Positions 1 through 39,353 of a stretch of 64,000 nt of DNA are shown one piece after another. The notes beneath the pieces were generated by a model. It was given only the letters and a program-made list of their open reading frames with translations, was not told the origin of the DNA and did no database searches. The first letter of the stretch is position 1. Each line of letters opens with the position of its first letter. The stretch is from Candidatus Spyradenecus sp. (GTDB lineage Bacteria > Verrucomicrobiota > Kiritimatiellia > RFP12 > DVOR01). The stretch is taken from contig JAZLBT010000026.1 of NCBI GenBank assembly GCA_045613865.1, positions 5,001-69,000 of the forward strand, written 5' to 3'. A program made the translations under genes and the position numbers.

Positions 1-30
1 CGCCTCATTACTTGGATTTTAGGATTCTAA
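1..30 (+). CDS. 3' end of a small hydrophobic peptide (..RLITWILGF*), paralog of 316-426; truncated by window edge
   Basis: cgcctcattacttgg at 1-15 recurs exactly at 382-396 inside the 316-426 ORF, in the same reading (RLITW). Confidence 0.55.
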   Translation, partial: RLITWILGF

Positions 31-65
31 AAAATGAATGGCTAAAAAGATTCGCGATTACAATT

Positions 66-185
66 AAAAAAAACGCCCTCGGCTTCAGGGCGAGGGCGTT
101 CTAAAAGGCAGGTGATACCACTGTTATCTCGTGGCTCTACTGACCGAGGCGTTCATGAGGTTAGTCCCCAGTAGTTACCGCCAGT
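66..185 (-). ncRNA. candidate small structured RNA 'A'
   Basis: Directly downstream of the 187-221 promoter cassette. Internal stems TGGC/GCCA and CTACTG/CAGTAG. Ends in hairpin aacgccctcg..cgagggcgtt plus T8 on the minus strand. Confidence 0.55.
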
Positions 186-186
186 A

Positions 187-221
187 AGAATACTAAATCA
201 CAAACGATGAATGTTTGTCAA
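187..221 (-). promoter_or_regulatory. repeated sigma70-like promoter cassette, copy 1 (TTGACA-N15-TGn-TTTAGT)
   Basis: 187-228 is 40/42 identical to 5318-5359; its reverse complement matches 2204-2238. Confidence 0.7.
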
Positions 222-315
222 TGAAAAAGAGTCAAAAAAGCACGAAAAATGAAACTTGTGACGGTTTTTAGTCCTTGTCGACCTTTTATCTCGCAGCCTA
301 AGAGGAATAAATCCA

Positions 316-426
316 ATGAATAATCTGACGAAACAATGTTTGCGTGATATGGCCTCGGCCCTTGCAGGAATTTTCTTTTATCGCCTCATTACTTGGTTAT
401 TGGGTGCTAACGGCATTTGGACCTAA
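316..426 (+). CDS. 36-aa hydrophobic peptide, Ldr/Fst type I toxin-like (MNNLTKQCLRDMASALAGIFFYRLITWLLGANGIWT)
   Basis: AGAGGA RBS at 301-306; one hydrophobic segment; D-x-A..LAGI..W pattern resembles Ldr; a second copy ends at 30. Confidence 0.55.
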   Translation: MNNLTKQCLRDMASALAGIFFYRLITWLLGANGIWT

Positions 427-429
427 TAA

Positions 430-540
430 CAAAAAATAAGGAGTTTGTGATGTTCGTTATGCAGACCTACCTGGACATAACGCCTACTGCTTCATGCTTA
501 CTGTTCATGCGGCAATGAAGAGTTTCACAAACTCTGTACT
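430..540 (-). ncRNA. candidate small structured RNA 'B' (multi-stem junction)
   Basis: Closing stem gagtttgtga/tcacaaactc encloses cgttatg/cataacg and cttcat/atgaag stems. TTGACA on minus at 567-572; T-run on minus at 431-436. Confidence 0.5.
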
Positions 541-624
541 CATAACATCTCACATCTCACGCTTATTGTCAAGGAGAAAAGGCTAAAATGTTTAAAATAC
601 GAATAAAAGAGTGCGATTGTTTGC

Positions 625-700
625 TTGGCACACTTTTTGACCTGCCTAAATGATTTTAAAGAATTTCAGAAATAGACTACGATTGATTGAAAAAGTGAAA
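625..700 (+). repeat. degenerate partial copy of the outer end of the 39.5/41.6-kb inverted-repeat element
   Basis: ttggc..actttttgacctgcctaaa..gaaatag..tacga..gaaaaagtgaaa aligns with 5502-5570 and 41791-41858. Confidence 0.55.
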
Positions 701-894
701 CCAATAAGAAGCCCTTTACATCGAGGTGCCTTAGTTTCGTACTTTTCCAGAGGAACTTCTACCTTACAAACACAATTATTAAACCATAACAATAAAAGAA
801 ATATCGAAGAGGTGAATTGAATCATTGACATGAGATTGAAGAAGTGTTACTGTTAGAGGGAGTTTTCTCGGTGGATGTTATAGGACGTGGATTA

Positions 895-1761
895 ATGAAA
901 AAAACAACAAAAACCTCTCAGAAAGTTGCCAAACTGATTCAACATGCGCGTACCGGAAATGTTGAGGCACAGTATAACGTGGCATTAAAATATGTTTATG
1001 GTGATGGTGTACCAAAAAATCTACGCTTGGCAAGAAAGTATTATCGTCTGGCTGCATGTCAGGGACACATGTATGCGCAAAATAATCTAGGCGCGATGTA
1101 TCGTATGGGGGAAGGTGGAAAAATTGATTATCTAGAGGCGTTACGATGGTTTAAATTGGCTGCTGCACAAGGTGATGAATACGCCTATTCTTCGTTGGGG
1201 TGCATGTATGAAGAAGGATTAGGCGTTCGTAAAAATTATCGTAAGGCGGCTGAGTATTATCACTTTGCAGCGAACCGAGGGGATACTAGCGCTCAAAATG
1301 CATTGGGGTTAATGTATGAATCTGGAAAAGGTGTCCCGAAAGATTACCGAGAAGCCGCACGCCTGTATGAACTCGCGGCAGAGCAAGGCTCTGTCTACGC
1401 CAAAAACAACCTCGCAATTTTGTATAACCATGGACGAGGGGTTGAAAAAGATGTAGAAAAAGCAATTGCGCTCTACTATGCTTGCGCGAGTGAGGGACTT
1501 GCCGAAGCGGAATGTAACTTGGCGATATTGTACCTAAAGGGGAAATGTGTCCCTCGCGACGTAATGATAGCCGTTGATTTCTTTACGCGGGCAGCGAAAA
1601 GAGGACTGGCCGAGGCGCAATTTAGATTAGCTAAAATGTATACCCAAGGTCGCGGTGTTTCGCGTGACTTACGAAAGGCAATCCCACTCTATCGTCGTGC
1701 TGCAAGAAGTGGTCGAAAGGCTGCGCAAAATTGGCTTACAAAACATGGTTATACGTGGTAA
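895..1761 (+). CDS. Sel1-like repeat (TPR) protein
   Basis: About 7 repeats of AQxNLGxMYxxGxGVxxDyxxAxxxYxxAAxQG; ATG 895 preferred to GTG 844. Confidence 0.9.
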   Translation: MKKTTKTSQKVAKLIQHARTGNVEAQYNVALKYVYGDGVPKNLRLARKYYRLAACQGHMYAQNNLGAMYRMGEGGKIDYLEALRWFKLAAAQGDEYAYSSLGCMYEEGLGVRKNYRKAAEYYHFAANRGDTSAQNALGLMYESGKGVPKDYREAARLYELAAEQGSVYAKNNLAILYNHGRGVEKDVEKAIALYYACASEGLAEAECNLAILYLKGKCVPRDVMIAVDFFTRAAKRGLAEAQFRLAKMYTQGRGVSRDLRKAIPLYRRAARSGRKAAQNWLTKHGYTW

Positions 1762-1771
1762 AGTCCAATGA

Positions 1772-1905
1772 AATTAAAATGAGCCTACCCTTTCGGATGA
1801 GCTCGGGGGCGTAAAACACTCTTCAGTAAACTTGGCGTTGGAACCGAAGCAGACACCCTCCATATCTGAACATCTAGACTTGCATAAATGGAGAACTGAT
1901 TACCG
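1772..1905 (-). ncRNA. candidate small structured RNA 'C'
   Basis: Minus promoter TTGCTT(1931-1936)-17-GATACT(1908-1913). Stems ctccat/atggag and cttcgg/ctgaag; terminal hairpin gagctcatccgaaagggtaggctc plus T-run. Confidence 0.5.
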
Positions 1906-1945
1906 TCAGTATCGCATAACCTGCTTTTAGAAGCAATCTTTTTCA

Positions 1946-1980
1946 TTGACATATCATCTGATTTTGTGCTCTAATGTTCT
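1946..1980 (+). promoter_or_regulatory. promoter cassette, diverged copy (TTGACA-N15-TGc-TCTAAT)
   Basis: Same 35-nt length, same upstream tttttca, and TTGTG..TAATGTTCT end as the other copies. Confidence 0.6.
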
Positions 1981-2188
1981 TGTTTTCAAAGCGAAGGCTC
2001 CTCCAAGGAAGTAAGTTTGAGGCACTTGGAAGTAGACGGTGGCCGGAAATAACAGGTGCAGGTTCGCCTGCAAGTGCGAAAGATCCGAAAGGTGAAGCCC
2101 GGCGGTCGACATTAGTAAGTCGCGCCAATGTCATCCTCCGTTTTGTTCTCTATTTGGCCACCACGCGAACGATAGCGGGTGGCCTTTT
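1981..2188 (+). ncRNA. candidate structured RNA 'D' (paralog of F)
   Basis: 22-nt exact match aaagatccgaaaggtgaagccc (2079-2100) to the reverse complement of 4746-4767; terminator ggccacc..ggtggcc-tttt at 2156-2188. Confidence 0.65.
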
Positions 2189-2203
2189 CCAAAGCGATAA
2201 TAC

Positions 2204-2238
2204 TTGATAAACATTCATCGTTTGTGGTTTACTGTTCT
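2204..2238 (+). promoter_or_regulatory. promoter cassette copy (TTGATA-N15-TGg-TTTACT)
   Basis: 32/35 identical to the reverse complement of 5318-5352. Confidence 0.7.
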
Positions 2239-2239
2239 T

Positions 2240-2407
2240 CGCAAAACGGAGATAGAGACCATCCTCTGAGCCGTGAGTTGCCCGATGCCAGATGGTGAGG
2301 CATTTTGGTAGGCTTCTTTTGAAGCCGAGGCGCTTCCAAAAGTTTGCGGGTGAACGTGTGCGCTTTTGGATTAAACCTGGGGATGTTCACCAGCCCCGCG
2401 GTTTTTT
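2240..2407 (+). ncRNA. candidate structured RNA 'E' (paralog of G)
   Basis: AAACGGAGAT..CCGTGAGTT..TGCGGG shared with G; stems ccaaaag/cttttgg and ggcttc/gaagcc; terminator hairpin plus T6 at 2373-2407. Confidence 0.6.
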
Positions 2408-2428
2408 ACACTCGCCGGTTTTTCGTCA

Positions 2429-2457
2429 TTGACATTTTTCGCACATTGGGGTATTTT
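2429..2457 (+). promoter_or_regulatory. sigma70-like promoter of the ankyrin gene
   Basis: TTGACA-17-TATTTT, about 55 nt upstream of ATG 2511. Confidence 0.55.
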
Positions 2458-2510
2458 ATAAATATCAATTCTTTTAACCCCGTGATACGTCTCCGTGTCG
2501 AGACGTTTTT

Positions 2511-4394
2511 ATGACTCAAAAAACAATTCGTTTCGTTGGTGTCTCGCGCCTCAATCAGGCTGTTTTACCCTTTTTCTTTAACCGAGCCATTTCGCTAACG
2601 CCTTCCGTGCGTCGGCGATTGTTCAAATATGCCGATGAGGCCACAGCGGTGGTGCGCGCCTACTACCGCCGGTCTATCTTTCCGCATCACTACGGACGAG
2701 ATCCCGAGAATTGGGAGGTCTCTCCTAGTGCACTAGCGGCCTACGCCTTCTTTCTACGTGGCCTCGCGCGCGGACGCATCTTTCGTTATGGTGCCATTTT
2801 CCACTCGGTCGGTATTGCGGCAGCAAGTTTAAATCACGTTGAGATTTTACAACTCCTCATTCACGAGGGAATTCCCTTGGATTTACTCCATGAAGGGGGT
2901 GACACTGTGCTTGCCACCGCGATTCGCTACCATCACGAACCTTTGGCCCACGCCCTCATGGATGCATTCCCACGTTTTATAAGCCACAAATATGCCCCGA
3001 GTGCGATGTATGCCTGTATCTTTTCAGGCACTATTCCACTCTTTTTTGACATGGTTGAGCGCGGTTTCTCTATTACCTTTTTCATGGGTTTCAAAGATTG
3101 GATTGGCACCCCCTTGAGCGCCGCTGTGCGTCGCGGACGTCATACCATCACACGCTACCTGCTTAAACACGCCTTCACTGAGGCCAATATTCTCATGCCC
3201 AAGACCTTTGAGTATGACCCGTTGCACGCTTACTTCAAATGGACTCTCTTTAAAGAAGCCATCTGTCACCAAAACCGAGAAGTCCTTGACCATCTCAAAG
3301 CGCACGGTTGGAACCCGCCAGCAAAAATAATTGGGGCCTTCTGCAGAGAAACAGGCGTCCTCGACTCCCTTACGCGCCTCAAATTCACCGAAACCGTCTA
3401 TCCCGACTTACCCTTCCGCAAACACATCCAAGCGATGTGCATGGATGAAGATAACTGTTGGTTCATTGACGATGACATTCTGCGGTATTACAACCTTCCA
3501 CTCAATGAAGATGAGGAGGACTTAACGCGTGTAAAGGCCGAGCCACACGATTGGCGCACAGATATCCCCTCTACCATGGAGGAAATTGGGGAATGTCTTG
3601 GCGAACGCCCCGAAAACATCCTGCGCCTCATCCCACGCATTCGTGAACAACTGCGCACCTATTATCAAAAAGCAGAGTTTTCCCATCACGCAGCACGTGC
3701 CTCGGTCTATGCCCTCTGCCTCGCACAACACTCTGCCGCACCCCTCTTTACTCACGAAGAATTACAAGACGCCGTGCGTCAAAACTCGGAGTTTAAGTAC
3801 TACGCTACGTCTTATCACGAACGTATCCTCGGCGTTAAGATTTTCAAAAAAAATTATGAGCGCGTCAGAAAAATTGATCATATCGTAGCACTACAAGGGA
3901 AAGACTTGCAATCCTTTCTTGATCAAAGCGATGAAGCCCTTGAAAAATATCAGACATGTTATGGCATTCCCATCATTCGTTACATCGCAGAAAAATCCAC
4001 CGTAGAAGCCCTTGAAATGTGGATGGAACGTGGTTTCTCAATTTGCGCCTGCGAAGAAATTGAATCCTGGCATCCCACACACTATGCTAACCCAGAAATT
4101 CTTGACTACTACTTCACCCACGTCGGCATGCACTACCGCACTAGATGCAATGAATACGCAGACACCCTCGCCTTCTCCATCCGTGGCGATGACGCAAGAT
4201 GCGTCAAAATCTTTGTCAAACATGGCTACCCCCTCAATCGTCGCCTCTGCGATCACGACTACCCGCTCGCCTATGCCTTCTATGAAGGCGCCGAAAAAAT
4301 GACGCATGCCCTCTACGATGTTGGCGCCAAAATGTTGGACCGAAAAGGTCGAAAAATGAACCTACCCCCATGGTTTAAACCGCTTCGCGGTTGA
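2511..4394 (+). CDS. ankyrin-repeat protein
   Basis: GDTVLATAIRYHHEPL, GTPLSAAVRRGR, DYPLAYAFYEGA-type ankyrin motifs. Confidence 0.75.
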   Translation: MTQKTIRFVGVSRLNQAVLPFFFNRAISLTPSVRRRLFKYADEATAVVRAYYRRSIFPHHYGRDPENWEVSPSALAAYAFFLRGLARGRIFRYGAIFHSVGIAAASLNHVEILQLLIHEGIPLDLLHEGGDTVLATAIRYHHEPLAHALMDAFPRFISHKYAPSAMYACIFSGTIPLFFDMVERGFSITFFMGFKDWIGTPLSAAVRRGRHTITRYLLKHAFTEANILMPKTFEYDPLHAYFKWTLFKEAICHQNREVLDHLKAHGWNPPAKIIGAFCRETGVLDSLTRLKFTETVYPDLPFRKHIQAMCMDEDNCWFIDDDILRYYNLPLNEDEEDLTRVKAEPHDWRTDIPSTMEEIGECLGERPENILRLIPRIREQLRTYYQKAEFSHHAARASVYALCLAQHSAAPLFTHEELQDAVRQNSEFKYYATSYHERILGVKIFKKNYERVRKIDHIVALQGKDLQSFLDQSDEALEKYQTCYGIPIIRYIAEKSTVEALEMWMERGFSICACEEIESWHPTHYANPEILDYYFTHVGMHYRTRCNEYADTLAFSIRGDDARCVKIFVKHGYPLNRRLCDHDYPLAYAFYEGAEKMTHALYDVGAKMLDRKGRKMNLPPWFKPLRG

Positions 4395-4731
4395 TAACTC
4401 GCTCGGCCCCATCGATATTGTTTGGGGTATTCCAGGAGACGCCAAGAATGATTACGCAGGCGGTTACGGCATTTCTCATACACTGGCTAAGCACGGAAAG
4501 GAAGCATTAGAACAAGCTCCTCTTCTTCTAGCTTATGGAAAATATTATAAGGATGTTTGGAGAAAAAACGGCTGGCTGGTTATCAAAGGTCACTGGGTCG
4601 CCGCACTTAACGAAGATAAAAACAGTAATATTTATCTTTCTACGATTTACAAATCAATAGAAAAGGCGGCTCGCTACTCGCGAAGCCGCCAAATCGAAAA
4701 CAAAGTAGGAGATGATGGCGCGACTCTCTAG
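4390..4731 (+). pseudogene. start-less PBECR (Barnase/EndoU/ColicinE5-D/RelE-like) nuclease fragment
   Basis: Frame open 4360-4731 with no ATG; reads LGPIDIVWG..GGYGISHTLAKH..IYLSTIYK, matching my recollection of the PBECR3 DIDLVWG..GYGLxHIxxKH motif; absent from the ORF track. Confidence 0.6.
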
Positions 4732-4734
4732 TGG

Positions 4735-4866
4735 ACGACTTTCCAGGGCTTCACCTTTCGGATCTTTTGTACCCACGCCGTAGCTAATGGTATACTACTT
4801 CCTGGCACCGCTACGCATTATAGCCCTCACAGCTGTAGTCTATAATGGGAGCTCCTCTTTGAACAT
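4735..4866 (-). ncRNA. candidate structured RNA 'F', convergent with the nuclease fragment (paralog of D)
   Basis: TTGACT at 4894-4899 on minus. Shares TTCAAAG, GCTCC, GTAG(A)CGGTG, GGAARTA and the 22-nt block with D. Confidence 0.65.
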
Positions 4867-5008
4867 TTATAGTGTTCCAAATCTTAAACCAAAAGTCAAG
4901 CATTTTTATCGTTTTGGAAAGAGCCATTTAAAGGCAATGTAAAGCAAGCCAACAATATTGATTGTGGTTGTGCTAAGGAGTGTAATTTGCACAGGTTCTA
5001 CTAAATGA

Positions 5009-5167
5009 CTAACTCCCCACGCACAAAGTAGTAATGTTGTCATTAAATCAACCAGTGAAAAGAATAGCGTAATGGTCTTTGTGGATAATAATGGCGAAGT
5101 ACAAGAAGCCTTTGACGTCTTCACAAAAACGACAAAAGACATTCGTAGAAGTTTAAAGGAAAAATGA
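5009..5167 (+). pseudogene. possible second C-terminal nuclease-like fragment (..NSVMVFVDNNGEVQEAFDVFTKTTKDIRRSLKEK*)
   Basis: 52 open codons, beta-hairpin-like pattern, stop abuts RNA G as the PBECR fragment abuts F; no diagnostic motif. Confidence 0.3.
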
Positions 5168-5316
5168 GTCGGTGCTGGCGGCAAGACCCACACACCGCAA
5201 TGTTCTCGTTATGCGCGTGCCCGCACAAGAACAAGGCAAAACCCTCTAGTTCATAGGGTGGCGTAGCCCAGGGAGGAACTCACGGAGCAAATGTACGCCC
5301 ACATCTCCGTTTCGTT
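5160..5316 (-). ncRNA. candidate structured RNA 'G' (paralog of E)
   Basis: Directly downstream of promoter cassette 5318-5352; atctccgttt (5303-5312) and aactcacgg (5277-5285) match E; terminal hairpin cggtg..caccg at 5170-5197. Confidence 0.6.
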
Positions 5317-5317
5317 G

Positions 5318-5352
5318 AGAATATTAAACCACAAACGATGAATGTTTGTCAA
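5318..5352 (-). promoter_or_regulatory. promoter cassette copy (TTGACA-N15-TGg-TTTAAT)
   Basis: Near-identical to 187-221 and 2204-2238. Confidence 0.7.
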
Positions 5353-5390
5353 TGAAAAAAGGTAAAAAATAGAAGGGGAAAACCGAATGA

Positions 5391-5501
5391 GTGTTTTTTA
5401 TCTTTGTCTACTATTTTTTGTGCGCCTTCCGCATGGGCTTCGGCTTTATGCTGGGCGGTATCTTAACAGTCAAATGTCTTGAGTTATTTTACGAATCTTA
5501 A
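5391..5501 (+). CDS. 36-aa hydrophobic peptide (MFFIFVYYFLCAFRMGFGFMLGGILTVKCLELFYES)
   Basis: GTG start, GAAGGGG at 5372-5378; same length and same side of the promoter cassette as 316-426. Confidence 0.35.
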   Translation: MFFIFVYYFLCAFRMGFGFMLGGILTVKCLELFYES

Positions 5502-5570
5502 TTGGCCGGGGACTTTTTTGACCTGCTTAAATTGTTTTAGGAAATAGTACGAAGGGCCGAAAAAGTGAAA
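5502..5570 (+). repeat. partial copy of the inverted-repeat element outer end
   Basis: ttggccggggactttt..gacct..aaatagtacgaagggccgaa.aagtgaa matches 41791-41858 and the reverse complement of 39459-39526. Confidence 0.8.
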
Positions 5571-5740
5571 TAGAAAGGATATTTTATCAAAATCTTAACA
5601 TTTTCGTTCGCCTATTTCACCCCATCATTGAGCGGTTTATTTTCTTGGTTTTAAGGTGTCAAATGATAACAATAAAAAGTAGATGCAATACGCCTCATAA
5701 CTGAAGGTTGCATCTACTTTACGGACATGTAATTTTAGGA

Positions 5741-6118
5741 TTAAAGTGCGTACGTTGAGATCAATTGGCAAATTTCGATCACATTTGTACGCCCAGTGAA
5801 TTGAAACTTCACTTTACCGACCGCAGAGACGTAAACTTCCAACTCGGAATCCATATCAAATGTGCCTGCCGTTTCAACGGAAAAGGTTGTGATTTTGCTA
5901 TAGGGAATTGACGTATAATCTGTCTTCTTTCCCGTAATGCCTTGTACATTGATTGCAATAATTCGCTTGTTGGTGAAGACTACACCATCACGAATGGTTT
6001 TATAGGTTCCAACAATCTCTTCACCAGCAACTAAGAATGGCGCAACCTTCTTCGCGAAAACATCGTTCTCGACTTGTTTCATTCGAGAGAAAAATCCCTT
6101 GCTATTAAAGTCTATCAT
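5741..6118 (-). CDS. bacterial PH-domain protein (bPH_1/YjqA-like)
   Basis: RDGVVFTNKRII..QGITGKK..SIPYSKI..FSVETAGTFDMDSEL. Confidence 0.9.
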   Translation of the reverse strand: MIDFNSKGFFSRMKQVENDVFAKKVAPFLVAGEEIVGTYKTIRDGVVFTNKRIIAINVQGITGKKTDYTSIPYSKITTFSVETAGTFDMDSELEVYVSAVGKVKFQFTGRTNVIEICQLISTYAL

Positions 6119-6543
6119 TTAAACATCCTCTAGCCTGTTTATTTAAACACCAAACGTAGCAGACAGGCAATAGACAACCACTTTTGGTGCTAACGAAGAC
6201 AATGGGAATCGTTGACAATTGCAAAAGGATTTAAACACGCAATGTGTATGCCCTCAAAGGTGACGTTTGTCGCTAATTTCCTAGATTTCCGCTAGCAGTT
6301 TATACGCATCACTGCAAAGAGAGAAATGTCATAACGCTCTCACAGCTTAGTTTTAGTGTAGCACATTCAAGCGTTTGCAGCAAACAAAAAAATCTTCTTC
6401 CACGTTTCTACAATTGCATTGTCGATTGTATCATGAAAATGGAGTTTTATTGGCACTTTTATATTTATATGTTAATATCAAGTAGCGAGGTGTATCGGTT
6501 TGTGCTATAATGGTCGTGTTTCTTCACGAAAGGTTTTTAGGTT

Positions 6544-7461
6544 ATGGTTTATGATATTGTGATTTTAGGCAGTGGTCCTGCAGGGTGCACAGCGGCGATT
6601 TATGCAGCGCGTGCAGGGTTTAAGCCATTGGTTCTCGAGGGGATGCAACCTGGCGGACAGTTGACGCAGACAACGGATATTGAGAATTTCCCTGGCTTTG
6701 AAAAGGGTATTAATGGCTATGATTTGGTTGTGACGATGCGTCAGCAGGCGGAACGTTTTGGCGCAGTTTTTGAAATGGATGAGTGTATCGGGGCAGATTT
6801 TTCTGGTGAGGTTAAACGCCTCGAGACGATGGTGAATGGAACGATTGAAGCGCGTGTTGTGATTTTGGCAACGGGGGCTTCGGCGCGTTGGTTGGGGCTT
6901 GAGAGTGAGAAGCGGTTGATGGGGCATGGCGTTTCGGCATGCGCGACGTGTGATGGTGCCTTTTTTAAGGGAATGGATGTCGCTGTCAATGGCGGTGGTG
7001 ATACGGCGTGTGAAGACGCGTTGTATTTATCGAAGTTGTGTAATAAGGTGACGTTGATTCATCGCCGTGATACGTTGCGCGCGAGCAAGGTGATGGCTGA
7101 TCGCGTTCTTTCTACACCGAATATTGAGATGGCGTGGAATTCAACGGTGGTTGAGGTGCTTGATCCTGCTCAGGGTGAAGTTTCGGCCGTGCGTTTGCGG
7201 AGTACTGTGGATGGTTCTGAGCGTCTTTTGCCCGTGCGTGCATTGTTTGTCGCCATTGGTCATACGCCGAATACGAAGTTTTTAGAAGGCGCACTTGATT
7301 TGGATGAACATGGGTATATTGTGACGGATGGTGTACATACGAGTGCAAAGGGTGTTTTTGCAGCGGGTGATGCACAGGATCCGTATTACAAGCAGGCAAT
7401 TATTGCGGCGGGTTCGGGTGCCGTTGCAGCACTCGAGGCTGAACGTTATTTGTTGCATTGA
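6544..7461 (+). CDS. trxB: thioredoxin-disulfide reductase
   Basis: GSGPAG, GGQL, CATCDG, GGGDTA, HRR. Confidence 0.97.
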   Translation: MVYDIVILGSGPAGCTAAIYAARAGFKPLVLEGMQPGGQLTQTTDIENFPGFEKGINGYDLVVTMRQQAERFGAVFEMDECIGADFSGEVKRLETMVNGTIEARVVILATGASARWLGLESEKRLMGHGVSACATCDGAFFKGMDVAVNGGGDTACEDALYLSKLCNKVTLIHRRDTLRASKVMADRVLSTPNIEMAWNSTVVEVLDPAQGEVSAVRLRSTVDGSERLLPVRALFVAIGHTPNTKFLEGALDLDEHGYIVTDGVHTSAKGVFAAGDAQDPYYKQAIIAAGSGAVAALEAERYLLH

Positions 7462-8930: not shown

Positions 8931-11900
8931 GCTTAGAACGATCGGAAGGTGTGCTTTGTTTGATCGGTGCTGATTCGCGTGAGGCACTTGAATTAGCGAT
9001 TTTGCGTTTGCAACATTTTTTGAATCATTCAACTGGGATTCGTTTTATTGATGTGGTTTACACGGCGACGTGTGAAGCGCGGAATAAGCGGTGTATCGCA
9101 GGTTTATGGGTCACATCACTCGATGAGATGGGACGAAAGTTGAAGTTCGCCCTCAACGCGCTCAAGAGTGGTCGCACACGCATGCGCGATAAGTCAGGGG
9201 TCTTTTTCACAATTGATCCATTGGCGCTTAAAGGTGGTAAGGTGGCGTTTATTTTCCCGGGGACGGGAAGTTTCCATTTGGAAATGATGCGCGACTTAGC
9301 GTTGACCTTTGATGGGGTGCGTGAGCGTTTTGATGATATGGAAGAGGCGTTTACAGGCTTTTGTGATGTGGCGTCTCCCTCGGAATGGCTCTTCTCAACC
9401 GCTCCTGAACATACCTTGCCCTTAACAGCATCCCGTGATTTCTTGCCCCTATTGGCATCGGCATCCACGTATTTGGCGAGTAAGGTTTTTGCCGATTATT
9501 TACGCTCGATTGGCGTGAAGCCTGCGGCGGTGGGTGGTATTGGTCTTGGGGCCTTTTCTGCGTATCATGCAACGCACCATGACCCGAAGATGCGTCTTGT
9601 GCAGATTCTTCGTGATGCAGGACGTATGTTGGTGCGATTAGGACAGGAGAAATCGGTTGTTCAACCATGGGTGCAGTTGACCGTCACGAATGTTGATGCG
9701 CGTGCATTGCAGGAATTTGTTGCCGATTATGATGACCAAGTGGTGCTCACGCAGCAGATTTCGGAACGGAATGCGATTGTTGCTGTTCACCCTGATTCGC
9801 TTACAGCGATGGAATCTTTTGTTCGCACACAGGGTGGAACGTCGATTGCCGAACCTTTGTCGGTGCCGTTTAACACGGGTACGGGCAGTGCGGCGATGGG
9901 AGAGATTTTCCATCAGTTCTTTAGCAAGTATGTGACGATTGAGCCGCAAGTTCCCTTTTATTCAAGTGTGACAGGCCAACCAGTGGATACCTCACTGGCA
10001 TCGATTTCGCAGTGCTTGGTTGAACAGATGATGCAGCCGCTCAATTTTGAAAAGATGATTCACTCGATGTATGACAACGGGTGTCGTATCTTCATTGAAG
10101 TGGGTGCACGCGGCGTGATGTCACCGATTATTCAGCAGATTTTGGCTAACCGCGAAGAGCCGATTGTCACCATTCCGATGCATATCCTTCACCGTTCGGG
10201 CGGAATTCAAGTTGGTCAGGCAACAGGTTTGTTAGCGGCGCATGGGGTGCCGATTGATTACTCGGGATTGCGTTTCTTTGCACATGCGAAGCGGTTGAAT
10301 TTTGATATGCCGATTGCAGAGACGGGCACCACGTCAATGTCGTTGCGCTTGACGCGTGATTTACCAGCCTTACGCCCCGCGTTGATTGACACACAGCGAA
10401 TTCTCGGTATGGAGACGACAAATGAAGAGGATGAACAACCTTCACATGCCCACGCCTTGCCGTTGTCAATGCCGAAACATGGCGTCCCCTACCCGCTCTT
10501 GCGAAATTCAAAGGTCTTGGAACAATCGCCCACGCATTTGACGTTGCGTGTGGTGTTGAAGCCGAAAGATGTGCCTTTCCTCAACGACTATGCGATTGGT
10601 ACGTCGGTTTCGATTAGCAACCCGCAGTTGCGTGGGTTGACCCTCTTCTCAATGGCTTCGGGGCTTGAGGTAATGGCGGAGAGCGCAAAACAGCTCGTGC
10701 CAGACTATTCGCTCGCAAGTGTGAAGCAAATGCGTGCACCGCGTTGGCTTTCCTTCTCCTTTGGCAAGTTGGCGTTGATTATCTCTGCCGATATCACCAA
10801 GGTCAATGACGATGATTCCAAGCAGGTACGTGTACGCATTTACACAGACACTGACACCGTTGAAGAAGGTGATCATATTGCGATGGAAGCAACGATGACC
10901 TTCGCCCGCGTCGTGCCAGAACCTGAAGCCGTGCCTGAGCTTGACCCCTTGGCGGGCTTGAAGAATGTGAATTGGCGTTTGTCGGATATCTATCCGAGTC
11001 GTCTTTTCCATGGGCCACTTTTGCGTAATATTCGGTCGGTTTCGGGTTGGGGCTATAATGGGATTGACTACGAAATTGTCTTGCCCTCTCGTGCGAACAC
11101 CGTGCGTGGAACACGTCGCCCCATCTTTTCAGCGATGCCGCTCTTCCTTGATGCCGTCTTTGCAGGGTTCCCGTTATGGCGTTCACATGAACGTTTCCAC
11201 GGTGCAATTTCGTTGCCTTTCCGCTGTCAGAGTATCAGCTATCACGCGGTTTGGATTCCTGAAGGAACACGGTTAAATTGTGCGTTGCGTCTTGTGAACG
11301 TGACAACGCGTACATTCCAGGTTGATATTCGTGTAACCGATGCCTCTGGACATGTGATTCTTGAAGTGAAGGGTTGGGAAGAAGTCAGTGGTCGCGCAAC
11401 GAATGAGTTGCATCACTTTATCATGAATCCCGCGAAGTCCTTCATTACACAGCCCTTGCCCGCAGCCATCCTTCCCGAGACGGATGTTGAGATTATCGGT
11501 GCACTCTATGTGAATGATAATGAAGAGTTCTTCATCTCAAATAACGAACTTTGGTTGAGTGCTTTAGCCAATGCGGTGTTAACGCCAAATGAACGCGTTG
11601 ACTACGCGCAGATGACGGGCACCGCCTCTCGTCGTTTAGAGTGGCTCTTAGGGCGTACCTCTGCGAAGGAAGCCGTACGTCGCTTGTTGTTGCAGAATTA
11701 TAATCTCTACGAACCGGCGGCAGATATTTCGATTTGGAAGGATAAACTCGGGAAGCCTCATCCCATTGGTGATTGGGATAATCATGTCTCGAGCCAGATT
11801 GACCTCTCGATTGCACACACCGCAGGGTTAATCCTCGGTGCAGCGACCGCACAGGGGCATATTGGTCTCGATGTAGAGTCGGTGAATCGTGACTTGACGG

Positions 11901-12211
11901 AAGACTTCTTACGCGGAGTCTTCACACTTGAAGAACAAGAACTCGCAAGCCGTAGTGGTGATGGCCCCACCGCAGTATTACGTTTTTGGTGTGCGAAGGA
12001 AGCCATTTCCAAGGCGTTGGGAACAGGTATTCGTTTCGCACCGACAGATTTACGGATTCGTACATCGGATCCAGCAACAGGACTTTTGGAGATGGAACTC
12101 TTTGGTGCATGGGCGGAAAATTTCCCGATGTTCCGCGAGAAGTTGATCCCCATCAAGACGTGTGTGCTTTATGGGCACGCAATCGCGTGTTGCATTCTCC
12201 CCAACTTTTAA
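8927..12211 (+). CDS. PKS-like AT-DH-PPTase fusion protein
   Basis: AFIFPGTGS and FIEVGARG (AT); LFHGP and LDA (DH); GRxxAKEA, GKP, SIAH, GLDVE, WCAKEAISKALGTG (Sfp-type PPTase). Confidence 0.8.
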   Translation: MSLERSEGVLCLIGADSREALELAILRLQHFLNHSTGIRFIDVVYTATCEARNKRCIAGLWVTSLDEMGRKLKFALNALKSGRTRMRDKSGVFFTIDPLALKGGKVAFIFPGTGSFHLEMMRDLALTFDGVRERFDDMEEAFTGFCDVASPSEWLFSTAPEHTLPLTASRDFLPLLASASTYLASKVFADYLRSIGVKPAAVGGIGLGAFSAYHATHHDPKMRLVQILRDAGRMLVRLGQEKSVVQPWVQLTVTNVDARALQEFVADYDDQVVLTQQISERNAIVAVHPDSLTAMESFVRTQGGTSIAEPLSVPFNTGTGSAAMGEIFHQFFSKYVTIEPQVPFYSSVTGQPVDTSLASISQCLVEQMMQPLNFEKMIHSMYDNGCRIFIEVGARGVMSPIIQQILANREEPIVTIPMHILHRSGGIQVGQATGLLAAHGVPIDYSGLRFFAHAKRLNFDMPIAETGTTSMSLRLTRDLPALRPALIDTQRILGMETTNEEDEQPSHAHALPLSMPKHGVPYPLLRNSKVLEQSPTHLTLRVVLKPKDVPFLNDYAIGTSVSISNPQLRGLTLFSMASGLEVMAESAKQLVPDYSLASVKQMRAPRWLSFSFGKLALIISADITKVNDDDSKQVRVRIYTDTDTVEEGDHIAMEATMTFARVVPEPEAVPELDPLAGLKNVNWRLSDIYPSRLFHGPLLRNIRSVSGWGYNGIDYEIVLPSRANTVRGTRRPIFSAMPLFLDAVFAGFPLWRSHERFHGAISLPFRCQSISYHAVWIPEGTRLNCALRLVNVTTRTFQVDIRVTDASGHVILEVKGWEEVSGRATNELHHFIMNPAKSFITQPLPAAILPETDVEIIGALYVNDNEEFFISNNELWLSALANAVLTPNERVDYAQMTGTASRRLEWLLGRTSAKEAVRRLLLQNYNLYEPAADISIWKDKLGKPHPIGDWDNHVSSQIDLSIAHTAGLILGAATAQGHIGLDVESVNRDLTEDFLRGVFTLEEQELASRSGDGPTAVLRFWCAKEAISKALGTGIRFAPTDLRIRTSDPATGLLEMELFGAWAENFPMFREKLIPIKTCVLYGHAIACCILPNF

Positions 12212-39309: not shown

Positions 39310-39353
39310 TTCAAACAGGTGCGGTTTGACGTTCAAACAGGTGCGGTTTGAAA
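39310..39353. repeat. 22-bp tandem repeat x2 (ttcaaacaggtgcggtttga)
   Basis: tcaaacagg at 39311 and 39333. Confidence 0.85.

Follow-up and report, generated by a model that had tools for sequence, protein, structure and literature searches.

An extended -10 promoter as the probable constant edge of a replaceable small-RNA and BECR-nuclease module of Mu-like prophages in Candidatus Spyradenecus

Within the first 5.4 kb of a 64,000-nucleotide (nt) stretch of DNA from Candidatus Spyradenecus sp. (GenBank assembly GCA_045613865.1, contig JAZLBT010000026.1), hereafter the window, a 35-nt promoter cassette stands in both orientations ahead of different structured RNAs. The question raised by this locus is why RNAs that are unrelated to each other should be served by one and the same promoter, and why that promoter should be so well conserved. 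An initial sequence-only reading of the window proposed that the cassette is also an operator or a recombination site that captures new RNA cargo. The analysis reported here leads to a different answer, which we hold to be probable: the cassette is an extended -10 promoter at the fixed edge of a replaceable module of Mu-like prophages, made up of a small RNA and a BECR-type nuclease, and the beginning of the window is an island of such units that have decayed while their RNAs remained intact. The window corresponds to positions 5001-69000 of contig C26 in genome G000 (G000:C26:5001-69000; 1.91 Mb, 34 contigs, 94.5% complete); G and C labels denote genomes and contigs of the analysis set, which comprised a genus sample of 28 genomes and an order sample of 151 genomes.

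The 35-nt pattern occurs exactly at 187-221(-), 2204-2238(+) and 5318-5352(-), ahead of RNAs A, D and E, respectively, where shuffled sequence predicts none (expected 0; 100 shuffles). A pattern search of the whole genome returned only these three matches at up to three mismatches, and likewise at up to nine substitutions. When the 42-nt copy of RNA E was slid without gaps along both strands (about 3.8 million positions), the highest scores were 42 for the copy itself, 40 for that of A, 34 for that of D and 31 at 1939-1980, followed by 28 and 27. Because 31 of 42 is the fourth-best value genome-wide, ahead of 28 and 27, the diverged copy at 1946-1980(+), which is the promoter of RNA C and shares TTTTTCA at 1939-1945, represents real homology. 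Both searches agree with the three copies and one diverged copy counted in the sequence-only reading, whose identities of 40/42 (A versus E) and 32/35 (D versus E) were also right, and the genome-wide search it had recommended places all four in one 5.4-kb locus. The A and E copies have 17 further bases in common upstream of the -35 element (187-238 versus 5318-5369, 90%). The similarity of D and E extends past the cassette on the other side (2204-2279 versus 5277-5352, 76 nt, 76%), which makes D and E paralogs. The earlier statement that identity ends at the start site and that the cargo differs beyond it is thus valid for A against D or E, the only unrelated downstream sequences, but not for D against E. 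The three near-identical cassette copies of this genome are, by all appearances, recent paralogs.

In G000 the cassette consists of TTGACA (or TTGATA), an 18-nt spacer ending in TGTGg, and TTTAnT; in the first copy, TTGACA lies at 216-221 and TGA plus TTTAGT at 192-200. Relatives mostly carry TTGCNT or TTGACC at -35, with a 17-nt spacer. A TG stands one base before the -10 hexamer, as TGTGg or TGTGa before TTTAnT, and the same arrangement recurs throughout the genome: TGTGnTATACT and TGTGnTATAAT occur 20 and 26 times, whereas scrambled controls occur 4 and 3 times (46 versus 7 in total). The rpsL leader promoter, CTTGAT...TTTGTGGTATACTAT, is one base from the cassette -10 block, and the promoter of the tRNA-Phe/Glu operon is CTTGCAT-17-TATAAT. 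The hexamer of the cassette is TTTACT, TTTAAT or TTTAGT; an alternative hexamer two bases further on (TACTAT/TAATAT) has A at position 2 and T at position 6, but would need a 20-nt spacer. The most fitting reading of the cassette is a housekeeping-type sigma-70 extended -10 promoter, presumably firing at the predicted site. It resembles known extended -10 (TGn/TRTGn) promoters of the sigma-70 type in its TTGACA/TTGCAT -35 element, its 17-18-nt spacer and the TG one base before the hexamer, and differs from them in the hexamer itself, TTTAnT, with T at position 2 in all genus copies. Two other candidate readings were dropped. A MerR-type reading (20-nt spacer to TAnTRT plus a palindrome) was abandoned since TGn+TTTAnT with 17-18 nt fits the other promoters of the genome and no MerR gene lies near; a sigma-54 reading of TTGGCAC...TTGAC at 625-645 was abandoned since the second copy does not conserve it.

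This promoter type is not tied to one RNA. The -10 block TKTGGTTTACTRT has 18 matches in the 28 genus genomes, against 8 for a backward control, and 15 of the 18 have a -35 element and a noncoding stretch downstream (flanks read by eye), belonging to RNA families A, C, D, E, H and I. In related genomes, this promoter type precedes at least five RNA families. G005 also carries the type-1 form found in the window, there in front of an A-like RNA that lies where a portal-PBECR gene ends. The RNAs themselves are new to Rfam: nothing reached the gathering score in the window, no match was better than E 0.3 in positions 1-7000, and none appeared up to E 1 in five relatives' loci.

The best supported structure is that of RNA A (63-185(-)), a three-way junction of about 85 nt with a closing helix P1 (GGCGG/CCUGCC), two variable hairpins and an intrinsic terminator at 74-92. 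It was detected by blastn in 10 of the 28 genus genomes, and a covariance model built from nine sequences, which also hits the window copy, found it in 13 of the 151 order genomes. Three of these 13 belong to two other families of the order, where the A-type RNA again lies beside the same nuclease clade. Among 17 distinct sequences, 24 of 31 pairs change on both sides while the closing helix is invariant; 93.8% of cells pair, compared with 41-49% when partners are slid, and 0 of 500 shuffles reach the observed values, in an alignment that was fitted to the covariance model and is therefore favorable to these statistics. RNA C (1981-2192(+)) is structured, about 210 nt long, and 88% identical to its ortholog in G003. 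Its paralog RNA F (4662-4866(-)), a fifth RNA that the earlier reading had missed, has a different upstream segment, TTGACT...TATAAAT at about 4867-4900, in common with an A-like RNA in G002. Compensatory changes affect 21 of 46 predicted pairs of C/F (5 sequences). RNA E (5159-5317(-); about 155 nt) is conserved at 73-84% in five other genus genomes (G001, G003, G009 with two copies, G010 and G021), with only two covarying pairs among close sequences. RNA D (2239-2410(+)) is a divergent paralog of E at its 5' end (AAACGGAGAT...CCGTGAGTT); its fold is no better than that of shuffles (z -1.48), and blastn found no ortholog of it in 40 relatives. The cassette of D lies immediately 3' of the terminator of C, so that the two units form a tandem promoter-RNA array.

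Several side observations concern the same promoter type. It also stands before RNA H (about 125 nt; L037/L061 in G011:C38 and L050/L060 in G001:C28) and RNA I (about 130 nt; L040 in G020:C234). RNA H is convergent with 410-441-amino-acid (aa) open reading frames (ORFs) that end in ...RVSGWHL and have no Pfam match. Tandem promoter-RNA arrays are present at L076 (G002:C21; F, an A-like RNA and a third unit), at L012 (G007:C6; F-like, A) and at 1946-2410 of the window (C, D). At L057 (G003:C63), a cassette-like promoter at 2300-2350(-), with the -10 block GCGATAAT, heads a protein ORF of about 125 aa instead of an RNA, 516 nt upstream of the cassette driving RNA C.

Pairwise comparison of related genomes locates the point at which the cargo changes. 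A 120-nt stretch including the promoter has 94% identity between the loci of G013 (RNA A and PBECR1) and G003:C35 (RNA E and the E-linked protein), which are unrelated from about +1, three bases after ...TTTACTGTGGG. G006 (A) and G010 (E) are syntenic over a flank of about 10 kb; its last block, 242 nt at 95.9% identity, stops 2 nt past the -10 block. The RNA and a C-terminal domain, together about 750-850 nt, are then unrelated, and homology resumes inside the portal gene, whose body is 78-92% identical between the two. On the promoter side, G006 has only the 42-nt cassette in common with G001:C5. With G007:C27 it has a 5-kb block in common that starts at the -35 edge of the cassette. Since identity ends within a few bases of the predicted start with flank and promoter kept, the cassette behaves as the constant edge of a replaceable module; and since both the RNA and the nuclease domain are unrelated where the promoter side is kept, they are replaced together, with the promoter on the constant side. 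The placement of new RNA cargo behind a standard promoter, as the sequence-only reading had it, is borne out by these comparisons: the strain comparison it had proposed reveals boundary swaps in two species pairs. Homologous exchange between shared flanks would account for them equally well as dedicated capture.

The other component of the module is a nuclease domain. In the relatives, every RNA is transcribed convergently toward the 3' end of a large ORF, and the portal ends in, or precedes, a PBECR-type domain. The portal was identified with Pfam as Portal_Mu (E 1e-36 in G006 and 9e-33 in G009), with a large terminase before it, and PHROGs matches in these loci were to transposase and portal. 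Against the curated cut-off of Pfam PBECR1 (PF18809), 27.6 bits, the C-linked ORF of G003 scores 37.5 bits (E 3.6e-9) and an intact 100-aa ORF beside RNA A of G000, at contig positions -360..-58, scores 36.2 bits (E 8.9e-9). As a side observation, L031 (G009:C45) contains two E-plus-nuclease units at 5678-6074 and 11798-12191, which are 89% identical over 398 nt, inverted, and flank a terminase-portal pair. Portal-PBECR and MuF-PBECR fusions have been described (Iyer et al. 2017, PMC5512222), as have MuF polymorphic toxins of temperate phages (Jamet et al. 2017, PMC5576092), where a small ORF follows 89.4% of 191 MuF toxin genes. In the portions of the literature on PBECR and MuF toxins covered here, these two papers among it, no RNA partner is described; their supplements may list downstream elements.

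RNA and nuclease were found to vary in step. When the last 120 residues of the convergent ORFs were compared by blastp (E <= 1e-3), nine A-linked and one C-linked tail formed one family, all six E-linked tails a second and both H-linked tails a third, with no cross-hits. The RNA family accordingly agrees with the nuclease family in 18 of the 18 loci that have such an ORF. No cognate immunity protein was seen to change with the domain at the loci compared; the RNA changes with it instead. The small ORF that comes next on the same strand is identical in loci with different nuclease domains and stays with the flank, so it is not a domain-specific partner.

These observations can be joined into one mechanism. 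A structured small RNA would be transcribed toward the 3' end of a BECR-type (PBECR) domain and end at or inside it, the domain being fused to, or placed after, the portal gene in Mu-like prophages of the genus. RNA and nuclease domain would be exchanged together between genomes, probably by homologous recombination, with the promoter and flank remaining in place. Such joint exchange with a retained promoter would leave unrelated RNAs behind one promoter, with identity stopping at about +1.

Much of the conservation of the spacer, which the sequence-only reading took to exceed what a promoter needs, has simpler causes. Its -10-proximal half is conserved because it belongs to the general extended -10 motif of the genome, TGTG being the genome consensus. 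In relatives, the type-2 promoter upstream of A, C and E reads gCTTGCaTTyCTCCTTTGGGTTTG(T)GGTTTACTRTGGG, and the reverse complement of its spacer is CCAAAGGAGAA, a Shine-Dalgarno sequence. Among 23 distinct cassettes, CTCC (that is, AGGAG) occurs in the spacer of nine by script count, and CAT, an ATG on the opposite strand, occurs 0-3 nt before the -35 element in 14, counted by eye on the same list. The opposite-strand ORFs of the relatives are small, often hydrophobic, and share the transcription direction of the portal gene; together with the orientation of the RNA, this puts the RNA gene, in antisense, between the portal/nuclease gene and the gene that follows it. The other strand of the ancestral cassette would thus bear the ribosome-binding site and start codon of that next gene, by which the spacer conservation in relatives appears to be largely explained. 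In the window only the ATG remains: at 221-223 opposite the first copy, opening a 16-codon relic, and at 5352-5354 opposite the third, opening a 6-codon relic, besides a 55-codon ORF at 1785-1952(-) that starts inside the diverged cassette. The type-1 spacer has a palindrome in place of AGGAG. A possible half-cassette relic at 564-596(-) has TTGACA on the minus strand and AAGGAG with an ATG (588-590) on the plus strand. Small ORFs beside or inside RNA promoters, some of them hydrophobic, were also noted at 316-426(+) (36 aa), 5387-5482(+) (31 aa), 1785-1952(-) (55 aa) and contig positions -32..30, and a 56-nt stretch at 349-404, which covers the C-terminal half of the 36-aa ORF, is repeated downstream of RNA A at 94.6%.

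A number of results weigh against the proposal of a promoter at the edge of a replaceable RNA-nuclease module. Some concern the nuclease assignment: the A-linked ORFs score only 19.9-20.7 bits against PBECR1 (E 6e-4 to 1e-3) and the E-linked 137-aa protein reaches only E 3.7e-4 against PBECR2, all below cut-off. The AlphaFold2 model of the E-linked protein, made with eight homologs (pLDDT 76.8), matches CdiA-CT (7m5f_C) weakly (Foldseek E 0.025, probability 0.99; VIA Z 5.4, root-mean-square deviation 3.5, 88 aligned); the next matches, to CdiA-CT NC101, colicin D, ParE, RelE and BrnT, are individually weak (Z 4.0-4.9), and the top rows are mostly BECR toxins. Others concern the pairing, in that a BECR-like convergent ORF is missing at 8 of 17 A-type RNA loci, which we read as orphans or unclear cases. 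In G000, moreover, RNA A and its PBECR1 ORF are arranged in tandem and not convergently, and RNAs C and D have no nuclease partner. The Shine-Dalgarno and start codon account fails for the type-1 spacer of G000, which has no AGGAG. Furthermore, sigma-70 promoters have a near-invariant A at position 2 of the -10 hexamer; the T found there (compare TATACT of G000) may mean that the promoter is weak, regulated or read differently. Several of the relatives' loci lie on short contigs (2.5-4 kb) of metagenome-assembled genomes (MAGs). The RNA data come from one gut metatranscriptome run (6% of sampled words, contigs only), whose contigs show neither transcription starts nor transcription itself.

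Three other explanations of the cassette were weighed against this proposal. The spacer could hold a built-in operator, a palindrome bound by a dedicated and perhaps phage-encoded regulator that co-regulates all the RNAs and thereby keeps the spacer identical. The perfect 6+6 palindrome in the A and E spacers, with one arm altered in D, agrees with this, as do the conservation of the entire promoter across RNA families and species and the T at position 2 of the -10 hexamer, which would suit an activator-dependent promoter; G005 retains both arms with one base of the loop different. However, the palindrome ACAAAC-N7-GTTTGT was seen in G000 and G005 only, being missing from the type-2 cassettes that head the same RNA families in other genomes, where AGGAG and ATG on the other strand already account for spacer conservation. 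Three recent paralogs would share their spacer even without selection, and no DNA-binding protein gene is among the annotated ORFs for about 5 kb on either side. We therefore regard an operator as unlikely. Site-specific capture, in which a recombinase would insert RNA units at the cassette as at an integron attI with its Pc promoter, seems to us less probable again. Breakpoints that lie at most a few bases from +1 in two species pairs, the tandem arrays in G000 (C, D), G007:C6 and G002:C21, and an E unit cut at both ends and placed in another setting in an RNA-library contig would all be expected of it. Yet different RNAs behind one shared promoter would always show identity stopping at +1, the joints of that contig may be assembly mis-joins at repeats, and the second breakpoint falls within the portal gene, the pattern of homologous C-terminal displacement. 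The units end in unrelated, family-specific terminators with no common 3' recombination site. Nor is there an integrase or recombinase gene near the island of G000: the ORFs annotated from -3.7 kb to +12 kb are AAA_14/DUF4143, Endonuclease_NS, PBECR1, Sel1, Ank, bPH, Pyr_redox, ketosynthase and PKS-like.

The explanation to which we give the least credence, and which we reject for this genome as highly improbable, is that the cassette is the end of a miniature inverted-repeat transposable element (MITE), an insertion sequence or another dispersed mobile element, a possibility that the sequence-only reading itself had raised as fatal to its proposal. Cassette copies do face both ways, and dispersed repeats of another kind occur close by (599-704 and 5502-5578). 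But there are only three or four copies, all in a 5.4-kb locus of a 1.91-Mb genome, and such confinement to one locus argues that the cassette is not the end of a MITE or insertion sequence. At least seven other copies of the 599-704 repeat are without a cassette, because the cassette has no further copy in the genome. No terminal inverted repeat pair was found around a unit; between the inverted cassette copies lie 2-5 kb of unrelated genes, and a target-site duplication was not seen. The repeat deserves a description of its own: it is about 105 nt long, occurs at 599-704 and 5502-5578 with at least seven other copies in G000 at 79-87% identity, and has a related piece with many copies in G012, G014 and G022. 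Its copies sit 380-480 nt upstream of two cassette copies and are elsewhere never accompanied by one.

If the cassette is the fixed edge of a prophage module, as we favor, the window shows that module in decay. A tblastn search of G000 with the portals of G006 and G009 and the terminase of G006 returned only two nuclease fragments. The first 5.4 kb is thus, judging from sequence, an island of units with decayed nuclease frames and intact promoters and RNAs, from which portal and terminase are gone. Pairings persist in decayed form. RNA F is convergent with, and overlaps, a PBECR1-like frame at 4360-4731(+), which has 123 codons and no start codon, matches PBECR1 below cut-off (E 1.3e-4, 22.9 bits) and has its last 70 nt antisense to F. 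RNA E is convergent with, and abuts, a broken E-linked copy, a BECR-like remnant at 4910-5166(+) with two in-frame stops and 40% tblastn identity over 89 aa to the E-linked protein of 137-143 aa; P0005 is an intact relative. A 627-aa ankyrin-repeat ORF at 2511-4394 overlaps the PBECR1-like frame, which opens at 4360 in another frame, and 2511-4731 may be either a frameshifted ankyrin-nuclease fusion or a pseudogene.

A 1,771-nt contig of the RNA run contains E (5159-5314, 4 differences) in different surroundings: on the promoter side, 28 other bases, which contain a -10 block TTTGTGCTTTACTAT (reverse-complemented by hand), together with a copy of 564-596, and at the opposite end the sequence from 603 down to 400. 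Such surroundings hint that the E unit is arranged differently in a strain of about 97% identity, with a mis-join at repeats being possible, and the joints 603/5159, 5314/564 and 2199/4922 of the RNA-run contigs are hints at most. As further observations on this genome, arrays of 22-nt units (CAAACAGGTGCGGTTTGAAGTT-like) occur on many contigs of G000, often at contig ends (for example at about 39312-39350 of the window, C26:44312-44350), and the Rfam models for 6S RNA and the bacterial small signal recognition particle RNA had no match in this 94.5%-complete assembly.

Compared with known systems, the module comes closest to polymorphic toxin loci. As far as the portions of the papers on MuF and portal/MuF-PBECR toxins covered here go (PMC5576092, PMC5512222), it is like them in combining a conserved phage head body with a variable C-terminal BECR-type domain. 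Block replacement together with a downstream partner, decayed orphan units and a prophage packaging context (terminase, portal) are further points of likeness, whereas here the place of the small immunity ORF is taken by a structured small RNA, convergent and under its own promoter. CdiA-CT/CdiI and Rhs orphan modules are further systems of C-terminal displacement. The module resembles RNA-antitoxin systems of type III (ToxIN) and of type I with a convergent 3' overlap (txpA/RatA) in that a small structured RNA is genetically tied to a ribonuclease-type toxin and, for C/F, in the convergent 3' overlap (70-89 nt). Unlike in ToxIN, the RNAs here are single units, convergent in relatives, with no same-orientation tandem-repeat array upstream; unlike in type I systems, the nuclease is not a small hydrophobic peptide, and neutralization by the RNA is hypothetical. 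The Pc/attI platform of integrons also offers one resident promoter to exchangeable units and forms tandem arrays, but no integrase or attC-like site was found here, each RNA unit brings or keeps a promoter copy, and the second breakpoint lies inside a protein gene.

The one-to-one linkage with the nuclease, the structure of the RNAs and the survival of orphans make an antitoxin or immunity function the most interesting reading still standing, although we put it forward tentatively, as a possibility well short of probable. The RNAs could be cognate RNA antitoxins, or an 'RNA immunity', for the polymorphic BECR domains carried on portals, each neutralizing its own nuclease in the producing cell. 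Phage-free bacteria might then keep promoter-RNA units as an immunity library against incoming phage effectors, with the cassette serving as the constant arm for pair swaps. Phage head proteins with polymorphic nuclease tips are known, and self-protection has been assumed to lie in a small immunity protein. Here the nuclease domain is accompanied in its moves by an RNA that is structured, strongly covarying and served by a conserved promoter, and that is retained after the phage genes decay. For an uncultured gut lineage (Kiritimatiellae/Lentisphaerae MAGs), the analysis also gives an initial view of the promoter consensus and adds at least five new RNA families. If the RNA does neutralize or control the nuclease, the two would constitute a new kind of toxin-partner pair.

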